The notes beneath the pieces are model-generated. The model was not told the origin of the DNA. It saw nothing but the letters and a program-made list of their open reading frames with translations, and did not search any database. A stretch of 64,000 bases of DNA. Origin: Escherichia coli (lineage in GTDB: Bacteria > Pseudomonadota > Gammaproteobacteria > Enterobacterales > Enterobacteriaceae). The translations under genes were made by a program, and so were the position numbers. Positions 2,862 through 31,347 of this stretch are shown piece after piece (positions within the stretch are counted from its first letter, which is position 1; each line of letters begins with the position of its first letter). The stretch lies in assembly GCF_016903815.1 (NCBI RefSeq), contig NZ_CP069973.1; one strand, given 5' to 3'.

Positions 2862-3779
2862 TTAACCGCCGATATGGCAGTTAAAACCTAAGGATTCAAC
2901 CATTGCTTTTAACTCTGCCATTTGGGCTTCTTCGATACTTTTTGTATCGCCCATCGGATACTGGCGACCAAGCAGATTATATTTATTTTCACCGAAGCTG
3001 TGATAAGGCAATAAGTGAATGGTATCGACGTTCTGCATCAGGCGGGCGAACTCCGCAATATTATGGATTTCCTGCGAATTGTCATTCACTCCTGGGATCA
3101 CAGGAATACGCACAACCACTTTGGTTAAAAAGGAGATGCGCAGCAGATTCTCCAGAATCACTCTGTTATTCACGCCGGTGTTGCGCTCATGGATTTCCGG
3201 ATCGATGGCTTTAATATCGGTCAGAGCAAGATCGACATAGGGAAATACCTCATCAATCACCGCTTTGGTGGTGAAGCCGCTTGTTTCAATAGCGGTGTGC
3301 CAGCCTTTGGCTTTACAGGCTTTAAGCAACTCGCGGGCAAATTCCGGCTGCGCCAGCGGTTCACCACCGGACAGGGTAATCCCGCCGCCTGAACGCCGGT
3401 ATAAATTCTCTTCTTTTTCCAGTTCGCGCATCACTGCCGTTACCGACATACGCTTGCCCTTCATTTCCAGCGCACGGGTAGGGCAAATCTCAGTACATTT
3501 CCCACACTGAATACAGCGGTCGCGATTGATAAACCAGGCATTAGTAATGGAAAGAGCCTGTTGTGGGCAAGCATCAATACATTTTCCACAGCGGATGCAA
3601 TCATTCTTTTTAAATAATAACTCTGGGCTGTGACGTTGTGATTCAGGATTACTACACCATTTGCAGGACAGCGGGCAGCCTTTAAAAAAAGGAATGGTTC
3701 GAATGCCTGGACCATCATGCAAAGAATAGCGTTGAATATTAAATATGACGCCTTCGGTTTCGTATTCAACTTTATTCAT
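2862..3779 (-). CDS. Glycyl-radical enzyme activating enzyme (radical SAM, PflA/CutD-like)
   Basis: CPLSCKWC radical-SAM cysteine motif plus two ferredoxin-like Cys clusters; directly downstream of the GRE gene. Confidence 0.8.
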   Translation of the reverse strand: MNKVEYETEGVIFNIQRYSLHDGPGIRTIPFFKGCPLSCKWCSNPESQRHSPELLFKKNDCIRCGKCIDACPQQALSITNAWFINRDRCIQCGKCTEICPTRALEMKGKRMSVTAVMRELEKEENLYRRSGGGITLSGGEPLAQPEFARELLKACKAKGWHTAIETSGFTTKAVIDEVFPYVDLALTDIKAIDPEIHERNTGVNNRVILENLLRISFLTKVVVRIPVIPGVNDNSQEIHNIAEFARLMQNVDTIHLLPYHSFGENKYNLLGRQYPMGDTKSIEEAQMAELKAMVESLGFNCHIGG

Positions 3780-18357: not shown

Positions 18358-20145
<1,788 letters not shown>

Positions 20146-20538: not shown

Positions 20539-20979
20539 ATGACTTCTGAAGTGAAACTGAAAACCGGTGGTGACCCCCGGTCATTACCGGATTATGCTGC
20601 CCTGCGCGATGAAATCAGCAAACTGACCCACCCGGCACGCCCTGATGTGGACTGGCGTTACGTGGAAACGCTCTGCCTGCGTCTGTATGAACACAATGGC
20701 GTGGAATTACAGACGGCATCCTGGTACACCATTGCCCGGATGCATACAACAGGGTTAAGTGGTCTGAATGAAGGGCTGGCTCTGATTGCTGCGCTGACCC
20801 GGCATCACTGGTCAGTGATGTGGCCGCTGAATACACACTCCCGGCTGGAAATTATTACCGGTCTGTTCAACCGTCTGCAAAAAACGCTCCGGGCCATGCC
20901 TCCGGATAACCGTGACAACCTGCCCCTGCTGTATCAGACCGAAACATTCCTGAAGACACTGAGTGATCTCCTTCCATGA
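20539..20979 (+). CDS. ImpA_N-like domain protein (T6SS TssA/VasL N-terminal domain family)
   Basis: Pattern [13 protein letters not shown]...[15 protein letters not shown]...[13 protein letters not shown] resembles ImpA_N; stop lies 45 bp before IS2. Confidence 0.45.
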
Positions 20980-21114
20980 AAATACGCAGGCTTGGCACGA
21001 ACTTAAACAGAGCAGTAAAGTGGTAGACTGGCCCCCTGAATCTCCAGACAACCAATATCACTTAAATAAGTGATAGTCTTAATACTAGTTTTTAGACTAG
21101 TCATTGGAGAACAG

Positions 21115-21480
21115 ATGATTGATGTCTTAGGGCCGGAGAAACGCAGACGGCGTACCACACAGGAAAAGATCGCAATTGTTCAGCAGAGCTTTGAACCGGG
21201 GATGACGGTCTCCCTCGTTGCCCGGCAACATGGTGTAGCAGCCAGCCAGTTATTTCTCTGGCGTAAGCAATACCAGGAAGGAAGTCTTACTGCTGTCGCC
21301 GCCGGAGAACAGGTTGTTCCTGCCTCTGAACTTGCTGCTGCCATGAAGCAGATTAAAGAACTCCAGCGCCTGCTCGGCAAGAAAACGATGGAAAATGAAC
21401 TCCTCAAAGAAGCCGTTGAATATGGACGGGCAAAAAAGTGGATAGCGCACGCGCCCTTATTGCCCGGGGATGGGGAGTAA
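21115..21480 (+). CDS. insC: IS2 transposase OrfA (InsC)
   Basis: Starts [26 protein letters not shown]. Confidence 0.85.
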
Positions 21481-22343
21481 GCTTAGTCAGCCGTTGTCTC
21501 CGGGTGTCGCGTGCGCAGTTGCACGTCATTCTCAGACGAACCGATGACTGGATGGATGGCCGCCGCAGTCGTCACACTGATGATACGGATGTGCTTCTCC
21601 GTATACACCATGTTATCGGAGAGCTGCCCACGTATGGTTATCGTCGGGTATGGGCGCTGCTTCGCAGACAGGCAGAACTTGATGGTATGCCTGCGATCAA
21701 TGCCAAACGTGTTTACCGGATCATGCGCCAGAATGCGCTGTTGCTTGAGCGAAAACCTGCTGTACCGCCATCGAAACGGGCACATACAGGCAGAGTGGCC
21801 GTGAAAGAAAGCAATCAGCGATGGTGCTCTGACGGGTTCGAGTTCTGCTGTGATAACGGAGAGAGACTGCGTGTCACGTTCGCGCTGGACTGCTGTGATC
21901 GTGAGGCACTGCACTGGGCGGTCACTACCGGCGGCTTCAACAGTGAAACAGTACAGGACGTCATGCTGGGAGCGGTGGAACGCCGCTTCGGCAACGATCT
22001 TCCGTCGTCTCCAGTGGAGTGGCTGACGGATAATGGTTCATGCTACCGGGCTAATGAAACACGCCAGTTCGCCCGGATGTTGGGACTTGAACCGAAGAAC
22101 ACGGCGGTGCGGAGTCCGGAGAGTAACGGAATAGCAGAGAGCTTCGTGAAAACGATAAAGCGTGACTACATCAGTATCATGCCCAAACCAGACGGGTTAA
22201 CGGCAGCAAAGAACCTTGCAGAGGCGTTCGAGCATTATAACGAATGGCATCCGCATAGTGCGCTGGGTTATCGCTCGCCACGGGAATATCTGCGGCAGCG
22301 GGCTTGTAATGGGTTAAGTGATAACAGATGTCTGGAAATATAG
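21438..22343 (+). CDS. insD: IS2 transposase OrfB (InsD), DDE domain
   Basis: 301 aa overlapping OrfA in -1 frame. Confidence 0.85.
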
Positions 22344-22355
22344 GGGCAAATCCAA

Positions 22356-23084
22356 GTGGCTTTACCGGAAGCCATGGTGAAGGGATATATCACCCGCCTG
22401 GAGAACCAGCCTGTGCAGGGGGAAGTATCGTCTCCGGTAACGCTACTGGCGCAGGCACTCAGGCTTGAAGCTCCGGATGTGCAGGAACATCAGACCCTGC
22501 CGCACTCCCGTCTGGTGTATGTTGTTTCTGAAACAAAAACAGAGCCCACACTCTTCCTTCAAAAATCCCCGCTCACGTTTCTGAAAACGTTTGTTACAGG
22601 TGTCTGTACGGCATTGCTGGCGGTCTGCGTGGCCATTCCGGGATGGCAGTTTCTGACACAGCCATCACCGGCGGAGCAGCAACTCAGGGCGCTGCTGACA
22701 CCCTCACCGGATGTGCTTTCAGCAGACCAGATGATGCAGCTCAGCAGAACACTGTTAAATCATGCGTCAGAGTGGATAACCCTTTCCGGTCAGCAGATAA
22801 CGCGACTGACAGAATTCCCCCCGGCATACAACCTGCAACGCAGTGTGCAATTGCTGCAGCAACTGATGGTACTTTTCCCCGACAATCCTCGTGTTCAGGA
22901 AATGGTGGATAACTGGCAGAAGAGTGCAAGGAGTCGTGCGCTCCCGGAAGAGGCGATGACTGGCTGGAACGAAGGCATGACCCGCTTACAGCTGTTGGCT
23001 GAGCGCCTGAACCGTCCGGATGAACAGCGGGGAAAATACATGACGGTCAGTGAGCTGAAAACGGAGGTGTCTGGCATCATGTAG
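22356..23084 (+). CDS. Hypothetical membrane protein immediately downstream of IS2 (start ambiguous: GTG at 22356 or ATG at 22374; frame stays open upstream across the IS2 site)
   Basis: One predicted TM helix (FVTGVCTALLAVCVAIPGW); possibly C-terminal part of the ImpA_N gene. Confidence 0.4.
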   Translation: MALPEAMVKGYITRLENQPVQGEVSSPVTLLAQALRLEAPDVQEHQTLPHSRLVYVVSETKTEPTLFLQKSPLTFLKTFVTGVCTALLAVCVAIPGWQFLTQPSPAEQQLRALLTPSPDVLSADQMMQLSRTLLNHASEWITLSGQQITRLTEFPPAYNLQRSVQLLQQLMVLFPDNPRVQEMVDNWQKSARSRALPEEAMTGWNEGMTRLQLLAERLNRPDEQRGKYMTVSELKTEVSGIM

Positions 23085-23275: not shown

Positions 23276-23983
23276 TTGTTTGTGGAGTGTTTAAGCGCTT
23301 TTGGATGTTCGTCTGTTGTTTCGAATAGTATGGTGAATATGAATGGTAAATATAATGTCAGGAGTGAATTGTTAGCTCGTTGTATCGGAACTGGTAGATT
23401 GAAAGGAGATGTGAGAAGTGATTTTATTGGGTTTAATGGTAGTAAACAGGTAGGTTATGTTTTATTAACTTTGTTCTTAACGAAAGTAATAAATTCTGAT
23501 TTGCTCTCTCATTATCGTATATTTAATCGTTTTTTGCATTATGAGAGAAAAGTTATGGACATATATAATTCTTTGAGTGATATAGAAGTTGATTGTATTT
23601 GCCAGGAAGTGATGGCTATATATGAACATACTCAGCGATGCTGCAACGAAAAGAAAATCACAACTATCCAGTTAGGCAGGAAACTTAATGGCAGGTATGC
23701 AGATACGATTGCTGAGTTAAAAGAAACAGCAGAGATAAGAGGGGAGGATGTGATTTCTTTTGAGATGGATATATTGAATTCTTTTAATGATGCGGATGAA
23801 TATCACGGACGTGTTAAACTGGAGTTGGATATACCTGCTTCAGATATATTATATTGCCATGATTTTATTGATTCAAAACATGTAAACTCCTGGTTGGTTG
23901 AACCACATGAGTGGGTGGTTATAAATCGTTCTCTCAATGGGATTGTTACAGTGCCAGTATCATCAATAAAGATTCTTTATTGA
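23276..23983 (+). CDS. Hypothetical protein in AT-rich segment, start uncertain
   Basis: 235-aa ORF with visibly low GC compared with neighbours. Confidence 0.35.
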   Translation: MFVECLSAFGCSSVVSNSMVNMNGKYNVRSELLARCIGTGRLKGDVRSDFIGFNGSKQVGYVLLTLFLTKVINSDLLSHYRIFNRFLHYERKVMDIYNSLSDIEVDCICQEVMAIYEHTQRCCNEKKITTIQLGRKLNGRYADTIAELKETAEIRGEDVISFEMDILNSFNDADEYHGRVKLELDIPASDILYCHDFIDSKHVNSWLVEPHEWVVINRSLNGIVTVPVSSIKILY

Positions 23984-24123: not shown

Positions 24124-25356
24124 ATGAATGATAATTTTTTAACGGAGAAAGTCCTTACTGGAGAGAATGTTCTGCGTGCAGCAATTGCTCGTATTGAGTG
24201 GATTTTTGAAATATTTCCATCAGTTTGTCTCTCTTTTTCCGGTGGTAAAGATTCCACCGTGCTTTTCCATCTTGTGGCTGATGTGGCCCGCAGGAAAAGA
24301 CGTCGTTTCTCTGTACTGTTCATTGACTGGGAGGCTCAGTACCAGTGCACCATTGAACATATTCAGAAGATGCGGGAAATGTACCATGATGTGACGGAAA
24401 CCTTTTACTGGGTGGCGCTTCCCCTGACCACGGTAAACGGTGTCTCGCAGTTTCAACCGGAGTGGATATGCTGGGAGCCTCGTGTGACCTGGGTTCGCCA
24501 GCCACCGGAAGAGGCCATTACGGATATGGCGTATTTTCCCTTTTACCGGTATGCCATGACGTTTGAAGAATTTGTTCCGGCATTTTCTTCCTGGTTTGCT
24601 GGCAACCGGTGTGGAGTGGCAGTGCTGACCGGTGTCCGGGCGGATGAATCCCTCAACCGCTTTATGGGACTGGTGTCCCAGCGCAAACTGAGATATGCCG
24701 ATGATAAGCCTTGGACCACGGCATCGCCTGAAGGGTTTTACTACACTATGTATCCGCTGTATGACTGGAAAACTCGTGATATCTGGATATATCACACCAG
24801 AACCCGTGCCATCTACAATCCCCTGTATGATCTGATGTACCGTGCCGGCGTACCGTTACGCAACATGCGTGTCTGTGAACCTTTTGGTCCTGAACAACGT
24901 AAGGGACTGTGGCTTTACCATGTTCTGGAACCGGAAACCTGGGCCAGGATGTGTGAGCGGGTGTCAGGGGCTGCCAGCGGGGCACTTTATGCCAATGAAA
25001 GCGGGGCTTATTTTGCCCTGCGTAAGCGCATATCAAAACCAGCCCATCATACCTGGCGCAGCTATGCGATGTTTCTGCTGGATGTGATGCCGGAAAGAAC
25101 GGCAGAACATTACCGCAACAAGATAGCTGTCTATCTGCGCTGGTATCAGACGCGGGGCTTCCCGGATGACATCCCGGATGAACAGGAGAATGACCTGGGG
25201 AGCCGGGATATTCCGTCCTGGCGACGTATCTGTAAGACTCTCATAAAGAATGATTTCTGGTGCCGTACCCTCTCCTTCAGTCCGAACAAACCCCGGCACT
25301 ATGAACGTTATCTGCAGCGTATGAAAGAAAGGAGGAAGGAATGGGGGATTCTGTGA
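24124..25356 (+). CDS. ibrA: IbrA-like PAPS-reductase/DndC-like ATP pyrophosphatase family protein
   Basis: PP-loop SFSGGKDS near N-terminus; 410 aa; overlaps downstream ParB-like gene by 16 bp. Confidence 0.7.
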   Translation: MNDNFLTEKVLTGENVLRAAIARIEWIFEIFPSVCLSFSGGKDSTVLFHLVADVARRKRRRFSVLFIDWEAQYQCTIEHIQKMREMYHDVTETFYWVALPLTTVNGVSQFQPEWICWEPRVTWVRQPPEEAITDMAYFPFYRYAMTFEEFVPAFSSWFAGNRCGVAVLTGVRADESLNRFMGLVSQRKLRYADDKPWTTASPEGFYYTMYPLYDWKTRDIWIYHTRTRAIYNPLYDLMYRAGVPLRNMRVCEPFGPEQRKGLWLYHVLEPETWARMCERVSGAASGALYANESGAYFALRKRISKPAHHTWRSYAMFLLDVMPERTAEHYRNKIAVYLRWYQTRGFPDDIPDEQENDLGSRDIPSWRRICKTLIKNDFWCRTLSFSPNKPRHYERYLQRMKERRKEWGIL

Positions 25357-25979
25357 CACCGGAGATACTGAGCAACATGATTCGTCAGTACTTCAGCCAG
25401 GAACGACCAGAAGAAGAGGCCATACAGGCCCTGAATCATCTGCGCAGGGTGCTTCATGAGGTCAGTCCATTTGCACAGGAGCCTGTGGACTGTGTGCTGT
25501 GGGTGAAAGCAGATGAGGTGGTGGCCAACGATTATAACCCCAATGTCATGGCGCCGGGTGAGAAGAAACTGCTGAAACATTCACTGGAGCAGGATGGGTT
25601 CACGCAGCCTGTGGTTGTCTCGGAAGAGAAGGAGCATTATCTGGTCGTGGATGGTTTTCATCGTCAATTACTGGGCAGGGAAGCAGGTACGGGAAAACGC
25701 CTGAAGGGCTGGTTGCCAGTGACCTGTATTAATCCGGAAAGAAAGGGACAGGCCTCACGTATTGCTGCAACCATTAGACATAACCGGGCCAGGGGGAAGC
25801 ACCAGATAACTTCAATGTCTGATATTGTCAGGGACCTGTCGCGGCTGGGCTGGACGGATGAACGTATTGGTACGGAGCTGGGTATGGACCAGGATGAAGT
25901 TCTCAGGTTGAAACAGATTAGCGGGCTGACGGAGCTGTTTCTGGAAGAGGATTTCAGTCCGGCATGGACGATTCGCTGA
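25341..25979 (+). CDS. ibrB: IbrB-like ParB/sulfiredoxin-fold (DGQHR-like) protein
   Basis: VVDGFHRQ motif (DGQHR-like) in a 212-aa ORF. Confidence 0.65.
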   Translation: MGDSVTPEILSNMIRQYFSQERPEEEAIQALNHLRRVLHEVSPFAQEPVDCVLWVKADEVVANDYNPNVMAPGEKKLLKHSLEQDGFTQPVVVSEEKEHYLVVDGFHRQLLGREAGTGKRLKGWLPVTCINPERKGQASRIAATIRHNRARGKHQITSMSDIVRDLSRLGWTDERIGTELGMDQDEVLRLKQISGLTELFLEEDFSPAWTIR

Positions 25980-26018: not shown

Positions 26019-26327
26019 TTGAGCAGGAAAAAGAGTACCCCGGAAGTCGTGGAATACATGGTTGCACAGAAGCTGGAGGCTGCGGGTTGCTGGCGCAGAG
26101 CTTCCGCCCGCTGGCTTTTTGTTATGGGAAATGTTGAATGTACAGAAGCACAACGGGAGTGGTTGTTGTTGCGCAGGAATTATTGCCTGGCGCAGATATC
26201 GTCCCCGCCGCTACCTGAAAAGCTGGATATCAGCGAAGTGGCGAAAGCTGCAGATGCCACGCTGAGGCGAATGGGGATTGCCAGTCCGTCCGGGGAGGTA
26301 TTCAGAAAAGGTACACCGGTCTGTTGA
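26019..26327 (+). CDS. PerC-family transcriptional regulator homolog
   Basis: LEAAGCWRRASARW segment resembles PerC/Pch family. Confidence 0.5.
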   Translation: MSRKKSTPEVVEYMVAQKLEAAGCWRRASARWLFVMGNVECTEAQREWLLLRRNYCLAQISSPPLPEKLDISEVAKAADATLRRMGIASPSGEVFRKGTPVC

Positions 26328-26347: not shown

Positions 26348-26992
26348 ATGATGAAGAAAGGAATGGCAAACAGTATATCAATGACATGGCAACTTTTATG
26401 CGATGATCATGGTTTTACCCGGGAGCACTACAATCAGCTGAAGAAATTCAGCCCGGAGGCATTACGTGAAATTATTGCTGAAATAGCCTGCTGCCATCCG
26501 TCAACCAGTATATTGCTCAGGAATAAGTGGCTGACACTGCCGGAGGATATTCCGGAGCAGGTTACCCGTGAATACGAACGAAGAATACAGAACTGTCCAT
26601 CTTTCAGGAGCGAGAAAGAGGCGGAATCCTGGCTAAATGAACTGTTTTTTGCTGTGATTGCGCCGCTATACCGGGTTGTCCCCGGACAATCAGAACAGGT
26701 TGAATCCTTTGTTCTGCAGCTTATTGCCGAACAGGAGCGGGTTTGGGAGCTTATTCTAACCAATGATGGTTATTCATGGCATTGCGCACTTTATGATATA
26801 TTATTTCATCTGGTTTTACGAAATATGGAAGACCAGCCTGAACATCAGAGACAGCGAATAACAAAAATACTTAATGAGTCCGATACAAGGCGGGTTGCAG
26901 AAGAGATTAAATTCCGGATTCAATATCTTCAGGATGAAGAACAAAAGAGAGTTTTAAGTGAGTTGGTAAATGTCCTGATTTCAAAAAGATAA
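26348..26992 (+). CDS. Hypothetical protein
   Basis: 214-aa ORF 20 bp downstream of the PerC-like gene. Confidence 0.4.
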   Translation: MMKKGMANSISMTWQLLCDDHGFTREHYNQLKKFSPEALREIIAEIACCHPSTSILLRNKWLTLPEDIPEQVTREYERRIQNCPSFRSEKEAESWLNELFFAVIAPLYRVVPGQSEQVESFVLQLIAEQERVWELILTNDGYSWHCALYDILFHLVLRNMEDQPEHQRQRITKILNESDTRRVAEEIKFRIQYLQDEEQKRVLSELVNVLISKR

Positions 26993-27427
26993 AACATGTC
27001 GGAGTAATTTTTCTATATATTAAAAAAACAGGTTTGTATTACCATAAAGGAGATCGGTGAATAACCGTTATTGGATGATCTCCTTCCATAAAAATACGCG
27101 CAATCTAACGGTTCGCTCTGTGCCAAAAAAAGACATTGCTCACAATATCGAGTTAATCATTCGGCCGTTGAACATTCCCATTGAAAAATTTCTCAGTATA
27201 GAATATACCAATGTTGAGGGCATTCCTCTTACATCTCGAAGGATAACTATCATGGGTCTAAAACCAGGTCCAAAACCAATTGCTAAGTCAACAGGAAAAC
27301 CGGATCAACGCCGACGCGATAATAAAGATACTCCTGGCAATACTCCGGGATTAAAGCCAAGTAAGTCCACAGGTAAGTAAAAAATAAGGGTATAAATACT
27401 TATTTATACCCTGACTACATATCCAGT

Positions 27428-28252
27428 CTACTGAAGGTGTTTCTGCAGCCAGATGCACGTTCCTTCTATATCATACGCCTGTGCCCCATACCCTTTAGCA
27501 AGCAAAGTCTCTGGTAAATACTCGTCATATTTATCCAGATACTTGTCGGGAACAACTGCAGCAAGCTCAAACTCTGAAGGTAGCCCCGACAATAGCATTT
27601 TCTTAAGTGCACGCTGGACAGAGGCAACGCCTGAGTCCTCTACCTCTATCACACCTGCAAATGAACTGGCTTTAAAGCCACAACGTATAATCAGGGACGT
27701 AATTGTATTGACAATTTTATCCCCCATCCACGGGATCACGTAGCAGTTCTGACCACTGGCAATAAAACAGTCATTTTGTAGATTGTAGCGTTGGAAGTTG
27801 TCACTTCCTTCCGCGAAGAGGCTTCTGGCTGCGGCATCAGCATAATCGACTCTCTTGTTGCCTACCGCGATACGGTAATCATTTTCCCTGTAGATAGTGA
27901 GCATTTCCTGGCGAACAACATCATGAACAGACATCCCGGTACCACTGAATAGTGGCGGCTGACCGCCTTTAGTCGTCTCAACATAGATAACCTTTTTTTC
28001 AACCTCGATCTCTGTCACTTTCCAGCGCCGTCCGCCGAAGATGATGTGCTGCTCCGGCAAAAGTGGGGAGTCTACAGGCACTGTGCCAAGAGTTCGGTTT
28101 CCCGTTACAATGCGAAACTCCTCAGGTGTATTGAATACGGCATAAAACGTGTAGTGATTAGTCAGCTTCTCCCCCTCAGCCCCGACAACTATTTCACCGC
28201 TGGTTAGTTGAGTGAGCAGTACGGGGTCGGACCGGTATGCAGCGAACTGCAT
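27428..28252 (-). CDS. Hypothetical protein abutting an IS junction (possibly N-terminally truncated)
   Basis: 274-aa ORF whose 5' end overlaps the start of the IS3-family OrfB frame on the opposite strand. Confidence 0.4.
   Translation of the reverse strand: MQFAAYRSDPVLLTQLTSGEIVVGAEGEKLTNHYTFYAVFNTPEEFRIVTGNRTLGTVPVDSPLLPEQHIIFGGRRWKVTEIEVEKKVIYVETTKGGQPPLFSGTGMSVHDVVRQEMLTIYRENDYRIAVGNKRVDYADAAARSLFAEGSDNFQRYNLQNDCFIASGQNCYVIPWMGDKIVNTITSLIIRCGFKASSFAGVIEVEDSGVASVQRALKKMLLSGLPSEFELAAVVPDKYLDKYDEYLPETLLAKGYGAQAYDIEGTCIWLQKHLQ

Positions 28253-28604: not shown

Positions 28605-31347
<2,743 letters not shown>

Follow-up and report, generated by a model that had tools for sequence, protein, structure and literature searches.

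IbrA and IbrB take their names from 'immunoglobulin-binding regulator' and are also known as 'co-activator of prophage gene expression'. In Escherichia coli ECOR-9, the overlapping ibrA and ibrB genes, described by Sandt, Hopper and Hill in 2002 (J Bacteriol 184:3640), reportedly activated together the otherwise silent prophage eib genes. Here, we analyzed a 64,000-nt stretch of an E. coli chromosome (the window, to which all coordinates refer) and found that it almost certainly carries an intact copy of this described ibrA-ibrB cassette, of phage origin. IbrA, which retains an intact ATP-binding loop, is a PP-loop ATP pyrophosphatase of the clade that comprises 3'-phosphoadenosine 5'-phosphosulfate (PAPS) reductase, CysD and flavin adenine dinucleotide (FAD) synthetase. 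In IbrB, which has the ParB/sulfiredoxin fold, an invariant DGxHR/RHNRARG nucleotide-binding signature is combined with a helix-turn-helix (HTH). Taken as a whole, the locus is best explained as a translationally coupled cassette of phage origin that is carried as island cargo and encodes an enzyme directed at DNA, an explanation that we consider nearly, though not quite, as probable as its contrary.

Several described proteins resemble the two partners. CysH has a conserved C-terminal catalytic cysteine (ECGLH-type), and adenosine 5'-phosphosulfate (APS) reductases also have iron-sulfur (Fe-S) cysteines. CysD and FAD synthetase transfer adenosine monophosphate (AMP) onto sulfate or phosphate oxygen. 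VirB and KorB control the transcription of horizontally acquired genes, and SbnI is both a regulator and a kinase. In the Dnd systems, of which the DndD-DndE pair forms the universal core, DndC holds a 4Fe-4S cluster on three cysteines and has a separate cysteine dyad (PMC10853773), and a DGxxR motif has been described as key for nucleoside triphosphate (NTP) hydrolysis by the ParB-like DndI (PMC11662687).

The ibrA-ibrB gene pair and its two proteins

A preliminary description of the window had proposed an IbrA/IbrB-like pair of genes with a 16-bp overlap, the first encoding a PAPS-reductase-family PP-loop protein with an SFSGGKDS motif and the second a ParB/sulfiredoxin-fold partner with a DGFHR motif, placed between an AT-rich orphan gene and a PerC-like regulator gene. 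All of these elements were recovered. The two open reading frames (ORFs; Table 1) have the same coordinates as the RefSeq coding sequences (CDSs) in the identical strain 7/2 record, and all enterobacterial alleles share the 16-bp overlap. The PP-loop motif together with the Pfam domains PAPS_reduct and DUF3440 identifies the first protein, the DGFHR motif together with the family profile and the predicted fold identifies the second, and the flanking genes are recognized by low GC content and by RefSeq and PHROG annotation, respectively. The naming agrees with the domain architecture, the overlap and the matches in PHROGs, RefSeq and UniRef: relatives at 67–81% identity bear the UniRef name 'Co-activator of prophage gene expression', and IbrA is 91% identical to its relative in Escherichia phage PhiR5_2, where the genes are annotated IbrA/IbrB.

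The AGGAGG sequence ahead of the ibrB ATG sits within the 3' end of ibrA, and this position of the ibrB Shine-Dalgarno sequence points to translational coupling of the two genes. Among the E. coli alleles, the ratio of nonsynonymous to synonymous substitution rates (dN/dS) was 0.04–0.11 at dS of 0.3–2.2 for ibrA and ibrB alike. Such strong purifying selection indicates that both are real genes rather than chance ORFs.

In IbrA, Pfam recognized PAPS_reduct at residues 34–89 and 165–240, split around an insertion, DUF3440 at residues 242–390 and, weakly, the PP-loop family ATP_bind_3; the protein also belongs to PHROG 2302 (E = 1.5e-83). Conservation was assessed in an alignment of 39 IbrA homologs of 26–55% identity, four of them from phages. 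Within the PP-loop, G41, K42 and S44 are invariant, and S39, G40 and D43 are at least 90% conserved. Other invariant or near-invariant positions are D68/E70, the motif GxRxDES..R (R172, E175, S176 and R179) and D214/D219, and P211, W215, Y235 and a set of tryptophans are also conserved. No cysteine is invariant in this alignment: C251 is present in 22 of the 39 members, and the best-conserved cysteine column (column 98) has cysteine in 33 of them and alanine in the window protein. The AlphaFold model of IbrA (predicted local distance difference test score, pLDDT, 88.7) had FAD synthase, APS/PAPS reductases and CysD as its top structural matches, and its DUF3440 domain was covered by no match in the structure-search list.

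An identity of IbrA as an assimilatory PAPS/APS reductase (CysH) was considered and rejected, as the cysteine is not conserved and the NCBIfam CysH scores of 30–35 bits are far under the curated cut-offs of 154–254. The RefSeq name of IbrA, 'phosphoadenosine phosphosulfate reductase', is probably a misnomer that misleads inference on sulfur metabolism. With its PP-loop intact and with neither catalytic nor cluster cysteines, as in CysD and FAD synthetase, IbrA would rather be an adenylyl-transferase than a reductase or a sulfur-transferase. A search for informative domain fusions among the longer IbrA homologs returned only insertions, a possible intein and chimeric ORFs. Large insertions lie between the PP-loop domain and DUF3440 in some homologs, for example in P0387 (631 residues), and one long homolog shows a faint intein-splicing signal, which may mark an intein or a homing element in the gene.

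IbrB belongs to PHROG 2159 (E = 9e-82), and RefSeq gives the identical sequence the name 'IbrB-like domain-containing protein'. As a single sequence it matched ParB_N weakly (E = 0.013), and the family profile matched the N-domains of ParB and Noc with E = 1.6e-6. Across 37 IbrB homologs, D104, G105, H107 and R108 are invariant, and three conserved blocks are invariant or near-invariant: NxYNPN..AppE..LL..S...DGyTqP, vvDGfHR and RmasTiRHNRARGxH. The HTH that follows these blocks is likewise invariant, and the model of IbrB (pLDDT 85.4) ends after it, at about residue 199 of 212. The predicted fold matched KorB, the N-domain of pNOB8 ParB, Spo0J, SbnI, PadC, sulfiredoxin and VirB. DGFHR of IbrB aligns to GERR of ParB and Noc and resembles the variant of sulfiredoxin, serine kinase and DndB, and the arginine patch and the C-terminal dimerization domain of ParB are absent from IbrB. 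The ParB-type fold, the DGxxR-type motif and the HTH together make IbrB look like a nucleotide-binding, DNA-binding protein, as predicted from its family and its model.

The superfamilies of the two proteins, a PAPS-reductase PP-loop enzyme and a ParB-like protein with a DGxHR-type motif, are also those of DNA phosphorothioation. In a minimal Dnd-like system, IbrA would act as DndC, IbrB as DndB, and sulfur would enter the DNA backbone via the housekeeping IscS. The weak PADLOC matches to DndC and BrxP fit this idea as well, but we regard it as extremely improbable. The PADLOC DndC models matched IbrA at about E = 2e-4 or weaker (1.8e-4 and 1.3e-3) with no stretch passing, no DndC family was found among the NCBIfam matches, and IbrA scored to DndC no better than to CysH, CysD or BrxP. 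DndB/DGQHR models in NCBIfam or PADLOC gave no match to IbrB at E ≤ 0.01, leaving the short DGxHR motif as the only element in common. The lack of an invariant cysteine in IbrA, with alanine at the best cysteine column, is set against the 4Fe-4S cluster and the cysteine dyad of DndC (PMC10853773). The DndD/DndE core is also missing: as the preliminary description had held, no DndA-, DndD- or DndE-like gene is annotated at positions 3200–64000 of the window, and PADLOC found none among nine neighboring proteins. Its further claim, that the pair has the same folds as DndC and DndB, is correct at the superfamily level, but the specific analogy fails, with no invariant cysteine and no significant DndC or DndB match.

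Phage homologs and the proposed action on DNA

The IbrAB family is mainly phage-borne. It forms more than 5800 clusters at 90% identity, with 1837 representatives at 50% identity (E ≤ 0.001); it is present in 224 GenBank phage records, and 260 of the first 600 pattern matches in IMG/VR were confirmed as relatives. Gene context was surveyed in 92 loci (80 viral contigs, phage records and E. coli alleles). In 88 of them, ibrA has an IbrB-type gene next to it on the same strand, downstream in 47 and upstream in 41, and in most phage loci the two genes overlap by 4 to 19 bp or are separated by a very short gap. Modules for replication/recombination or packaging are the usual surroundings of the adjacent genes. 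Only three gene families recur widely, namely IbrA, IbrB and a compact SNF2-like helicase, which adjoins the pair in 18–19 loci. A helical domain of about 140 residues, here called X, is fused to the C-terminus of IbrB or encoded by a separate small ORF in 51 loci. Counted by third partner, 50 loci have X only, 18 have SNF2 only, one has both and 23 have neither, and all enterobacterial ibrAB copies, that of the window included, belong to the last class. X had no match in Pfam, PHROGs, NCBIfam or PDB sequences, nor by profile comparison with IbrA and with orf214, a conserved orphan of the window. It was considered as the source of the missing Fe-S cysteines and dropped, as it has no invariant cysteine or histidine.

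Beyond these families, the recurrent neighbors encode a DNA helicase, a Sak4-like annealing protein, RecE/ExoVIII-like exonucleases, primase, Holliday-junction resolvase, DNA methyltransferase and the large terminase, and one viral contig with an SNF2-like helicase gene immediately upstream of ibrA encodes an HNH-IbrB fusion (Table 1). DndD/DndE, SspB/SspC and cysteine desulfurase were not found among the recurrent neighbor families of the 92 loci. In virulent Streptococcus phages, the pair and an SNF2-like gene follow the lysis module. In Flavobacterium phage FCL-2, the pair lies between the large terminase and the portal genes, in mycobacteriophage Gaia it is in the replication region beside an exonuclease gene, and in a Bacillus phage it is beside a methyltransferase gene at the right end of the genome. 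More distant relatives are located just upstream of the terminase in mycobacteriophage Pipefish and Arthrobacter phage LiSara, the latter also having a methyltransferase. A function of IbrAB as phage late-gene activators beside structural genes was considered and dropped, as the position is variable and the recurrent neighbors function in replication and recombination.

Neighbors that act on DNA (SNF2, HNH, exonucleases, methyltransferase and terminase) favor a DNA-directed enzyme and are hard to square with a plain pair of transcription factors. We therefore tentatively propose a DNA-directed enzymatic mechanism for IbrAB, as a possibility somewhat short of the probable. In this mechanism, IbrB would be the subunit that binds DNA in an NTP-dependent manner and positions IbrA on it or activates IbrA there. 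IbrA would use ATP as the donor of an AMP group for an oxygen nucleophile; judging from CysD and FAD synthetase, the acceptor would most likely be a phosphate oxygen. The target may be DNA or a DNA-bound molecule, and the reaction may leave a covalent mark or yield an activated intermediate; a modification of DNA might affect a base, the backbone or an end. In phages, IbrAB would serve DNA metabolism, modification or packaging, whereas in E. coli the activation of eib would be a downstream consequence on horizontally acquired DNA. A more far-reaching proposal is that IbrAB forms the core of a widespread phage system that marks or activates DNA covalently by adenylation, with the ParB-fold NTPase as its guide and with three architectures (SNF2, X and bare), and that the bare form in E. 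coli islands epigenetically switches on silenced prophage and virulence genes; we consider this proposal doubtful. If the pair does modify DNA, the epigenetic mark would be of a new type, shared by phages and hosts and tied directly to virulence-gene expression.

Several points weigh against a DNA-directed enzyme. We found no mechanistic study of IbrAB in the literature searched, and none of the family members has a demonstrated modification, substrate or DNA-binding activity. The only published IbrAB phenotype, from the 2002 work of Sandt, Hopper and Hill, is said to be transcriptional. Moreover, the E. coli cassette comes with perC and stands beside virulence loci, not DNA-metabolism genes, and it lacks either third partner known from phages. 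The pair had been suspected at the outset to be a nucleic-acid modification or conflict module rather than only a regulator pair. Of this, an enzymatic, nucleic-acid-directed module gains indirect support through the family context, but conflict or defense is weakly supported, with no PADLOC match and with mainly phages as carriers. Homologs embedded as regulators, the contrary picture considered then, are seen in part in E. coli (perC and virulence loci).

A role of the pair in anti-phage defense of the host island, in which it would sense or modify invading DNA and protect the cell, is very unlikely. It could be suggested by a candidate defense gene with NERD and UvrD domains 4 kb upstream, by a truncated SngC/BrxH-like helicase gene downstream and by a Mokosh-like helicase gene immediately upstream in the O157 allele. 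However, these defense-like neighbors vary between alleles and are partly pseudogenes, and no effector-like partner lies beside the pair. In PADLOC-DB v2 there was no meaningful match, the PP-loop region of IbrA reaching E = 1.2e-7 to BrxP and IbrB matching nothing, and the family is abundant in phage genomes, those of virulent phages included. Any conflict role of the pair would more likely be on the side of the phage.

We also weighed a target other than DNA, which we find improbable. IbrA would then adenylate a small molecule, RNA/tRNA or a protein, for example one whose phosphorylated form is supplied by IbrB as a sulfiredoxin/serine-kinase-like phosphotransferase, and host physiology or transcription would be altered indirectly. 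Consistent with this, the nearest relatives of IbrA with solved structures have small-molecule substrates (flavin mononucleotide (FMN), sulfate and APS/PAPS), PP-loop relatives modify tRNA (TilS, TtuA and NcsA) or a protein N-terminus (Cap9), the IbrB motif is of the sulfiredoxin/serine kinase type, and PHROGs files IbrA under 'moron, auxiliary metabolic gene'. The invariant HTH of IbrB argues for DNA instead. So does the gene linkage of the pair, which involves SNF2 helicase, HNH nuclease, exonucleases, methyltransferase and terminase rather than metabolism.

Spread and island setting in Escherichia coli

The locus itself is already known, being common and annotated, with the pair named in 2002. 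The 4.2-kb region around the pair is 100% identical to strain 7/2 and many other E. coli chromosomes, the exact IbrA and IbrB proteins are each present on at least 1000 sequenced contigs, and homologous ibrAB pairs of 81–100% DNA identity were found in 2163 of 5426 complete E. coli genomes (about 40%). The identity to many annotated strains and this wide distribution indicate that it is the known IbrA/IbrB cassette. Up to four copies are carried per genome, and 78 matches are plasmid-borne. Between E. coli alleles, DNA divergence reaches about 19%. The O157:H7 allele lies in an OI-43/48-like island beside cah, the sequence type 131 (ST131) allele beside a TonB-dependent receptor gene, the virulence-plasmid allele between fec and iro, and another allele between F17 fimbriae and a YadA-like adhesin. 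The upstream sequences are not conserved between alleles, which leaves ibrA and ibrB as essentially the whole mobile unit.

In the window, ibrAB is cargo of a decayed genomic island at tRNA-Phe, a mosaic located beside dicD and dsbD according to RefSeq annotation. The island contains a P4-type integrase, several insertion sequence (IS) remnants, a group II intron, type VI secretion gene fragments and a glycyl-radical propanediol operon. The perC gene is accessory and outside the core of the ibrAB pair: ibrB, perC and orf214 are contiguous in about 978 E. coli genomes, compared with about 2029 that have ibrAB, and in the others the pair stands alone. The perC-family gene and the orphan are probably co-transcribed with ibrAB. 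In a transcriptome of Shiga toxin-producing E. coli, ibrB, perC and the downstream orphan were induced together upon adherence to epithelial cells (PMC7649339), which fits a single operon. No terminator-like site was found between ibrB and perC, in a promoter/terminator scan that performed no better than on shuffled sequence.

The main rival to the DNA-directed enzyme is counter-silencing. IbrB would be a VirB/KorB-like nucleotide-switch DNA binder that spreads on AT-rich acquired DNA and relieves the H-NS silencing of prophage and virulence genes, IbrA would be its accessory ATPase, either loading or regulating IbrB or producing a ligand for it, and the DNA would remain chemically unmodified. 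If this held, the VirB/KorB paradigm would be extended to a ParB-type counter-silencer aided by an enzymatic cofactor. In favor of it, IbrAB reportedly switches on silent eib genes of prophages, KorB and VirB are among the fold matches of IbrB, which has an HTH, and SbnI, another match, has the ParB/sulfiredoxin fold. In addition, perC follows about half of the E. coli copies, the cassette adjoins adhesin and siderophore loci, and ibrB and perC are induced together on host-cell contact (PMC7649339). Pch/PerC regulators act through the remodeling of H-NS nucleoprotein complexes (PMC4764244). Nevertheless, we judge counter-silencing unlikely. IbrB has DGFHR in place of the CTP-binding motif GERR and, at 212 residues, is too short for a C-terminal dimerization domain, and an alignment of seven alleles revealed no conserved operator or parS-like repeat upstream of ibrA. 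Furthermore, a merely accessory role would hardly account for the strict conservation of the catalytic PP-loop partner, and the pair is common in virulent phages within replication/recombination modules, with SNF2, HNH and exonuclease partners.

Other features of the window and of the surveyed loci are listed in Table 1. The AT-rich orphan had no family match in NCBIfam, PADLOC or PHROGs and occupies a variable slot directly upstream of ibrA, and orf214 had no match in NCBIfam, PADLOC, PHROGs or Pfam. The NERD and UvrD-like protein encoded upstream, named '3'-5' exonuclease' in RefSeq, matched the PADLOC candidate defense model C3a187 over its full length (E = 4e-140). In the O157:H7 island, a Mokosh-like helicase (MkoA/MkoC C-terminal) fills the slot immediately upstream of ibrA. 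From the different genes in the two islands, the region 5' of ibrAB may be a variable cargo or defense slot. Downstream of the cassette, the helicase fragment, which matched PADLOC SngC (Shango) at profile positions 468–719 of 720 (E = 1e-71), is cut by an IS3 remnant and annotated as a pseudogene. The type VI secretion remnant is interrupted by IS2, and the group II intron gene is intact and lies inside an IS3-family transposase remnant.

Table 1. Features of the ibrAB locus, its surroundings and selected phage loci. Positions are those of the window, except where a surveyed locus (L) is named.
Feature	Position	Strand	Description
ibrA	24124..25356	+	410 aa; PP-loop domain ~16-240 and helical DUF3440 domain 242-410
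PP-loop motif SFSGGKDS	24232..24255	+	IbrA residues 37-44, read from translation
ibrA/ibrB junction	25330..25356	+	Shine-Dalgarno AGGAGG 25330-25335; ibrB ATG 25341; ibrA stop TGA 25354-25356
ibrB	25341..25979	+	212 aa; N-terminal helical hairpin, ParB/sulfiredoxin-fold NTP-binding domain ~48-150, C-terminal HTH ~156-199
DGFHR motif	25650..25664	+	IbrB residues 104-108; position of ParB GERR
PerC-family regulator gene	26058..26327	+	RefSeq CDS; PHROG 994/10396, transcriptional activator
orf214, conserved orphan	26348..26992	+	ORF; RefSeq hypothetical protein; accompanies ibrAB-perC, also in O157 allele
Second orphan downstream of perC	27057-27380	+	ORF
AT-rich orphan directly upstream of ibrA	23276-23983	+	GC 0.34-0.40; RefSeq start 23339
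NERD and UvrD-like helicase gene	18358-20145	+	595 aa; 4 kb upstream of ibrAB
Type VI secretion cluster remnants	20539-23084	+	TssA/ImpA N-terminal fragment 20539-20979; POTRA and VasL-domain fragments 22356-23084
IS2	21070-22343		
SngC/BrxH-like helicase fragment	27428-28252	-	C-terminal part
Group II intron reverse transcriptase/maturase (ltrA)	29261-30784	+	
X domain, examples	L034:3384-3806; L043:6874-8001 (C-terminal 150 aa); L005:7549-7944		48 further loci
HNH-IbrB fusion	L087:9259-10260		N-terminal HNH endonuclease domain; viral contig

Comparison with known systems

With the locus itself ordinary, the residual interest lies in the biochemistry of the family and in the pattern of accessory partners in phages. 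A strictly conserved PP-loop enzyme and its ParB-fold partner are shared by some 40% of complete E. coli genomes and many unrelated phages, and the literature links them to the expression of immunoglobulin-binding adhesins.

Compared through annotated relatives, not through the ECOR-9 sequences themselves, the pair resembles IbrA/IbrB of ECOR-9 in the overlapping order of ibrA then ibrB, the combination of PAPS_reduct with DUF3440, the ParB-like domain with an HTH, and the location in a genomic island. The pairing of a PAPS-reductase-family PP-loop enzyme with a ParB-superfamily protein that has a DGxxR-type NTPase motif is shared with DndC/DndB and with SspD/SspE, as is, plausibly, a DNA-directed function. 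Different from DndC, IbrA has no conserved cysteines or Fe-S site and carries DUF3440, and its family is mainly phage-carried.

On the side of IbrB, a ParB N-domain followed by an HTH is shared with ParB, Noc, KorB and VirB, from which IbrB differs by DGFHR in place of GERR, by the lack of a C-terminal dimerization domain and of a detected parS-like site, and by its obligatory enzyme partner. Sulfiredoxin, the free serine kinase and SbnI resemble IbrB in a (D/G)GxHR-type motif and in structure, whereas IbrB has an additional HTH and an N-terminal hairpin.

On the side of IbrA, BrxP of BREX type 4 and the CysH-like protein of type IV-B CRISPR-Cas are likewise PAPS-reductase-family proteins, recruited to nucleic-acid conflict systems; only the PP-loop region of IbrA (residues 33–98) matches BrxP, and PglZ, BrxC or Cas partners are absent. 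CysD and FAD synthetase differ from IbrA in that the latter has an inserted tryptophan-rich beta-hairpin region (about residues 98–145) and DUF3440, and stands in no CysN-like GTPase or FMN context. They are nonetheless its top matches in structure and sequence, and share with it an intact PP-loop without a catalytic cysteine and the motifs GxRxDES..R and P-x-x-D-W.

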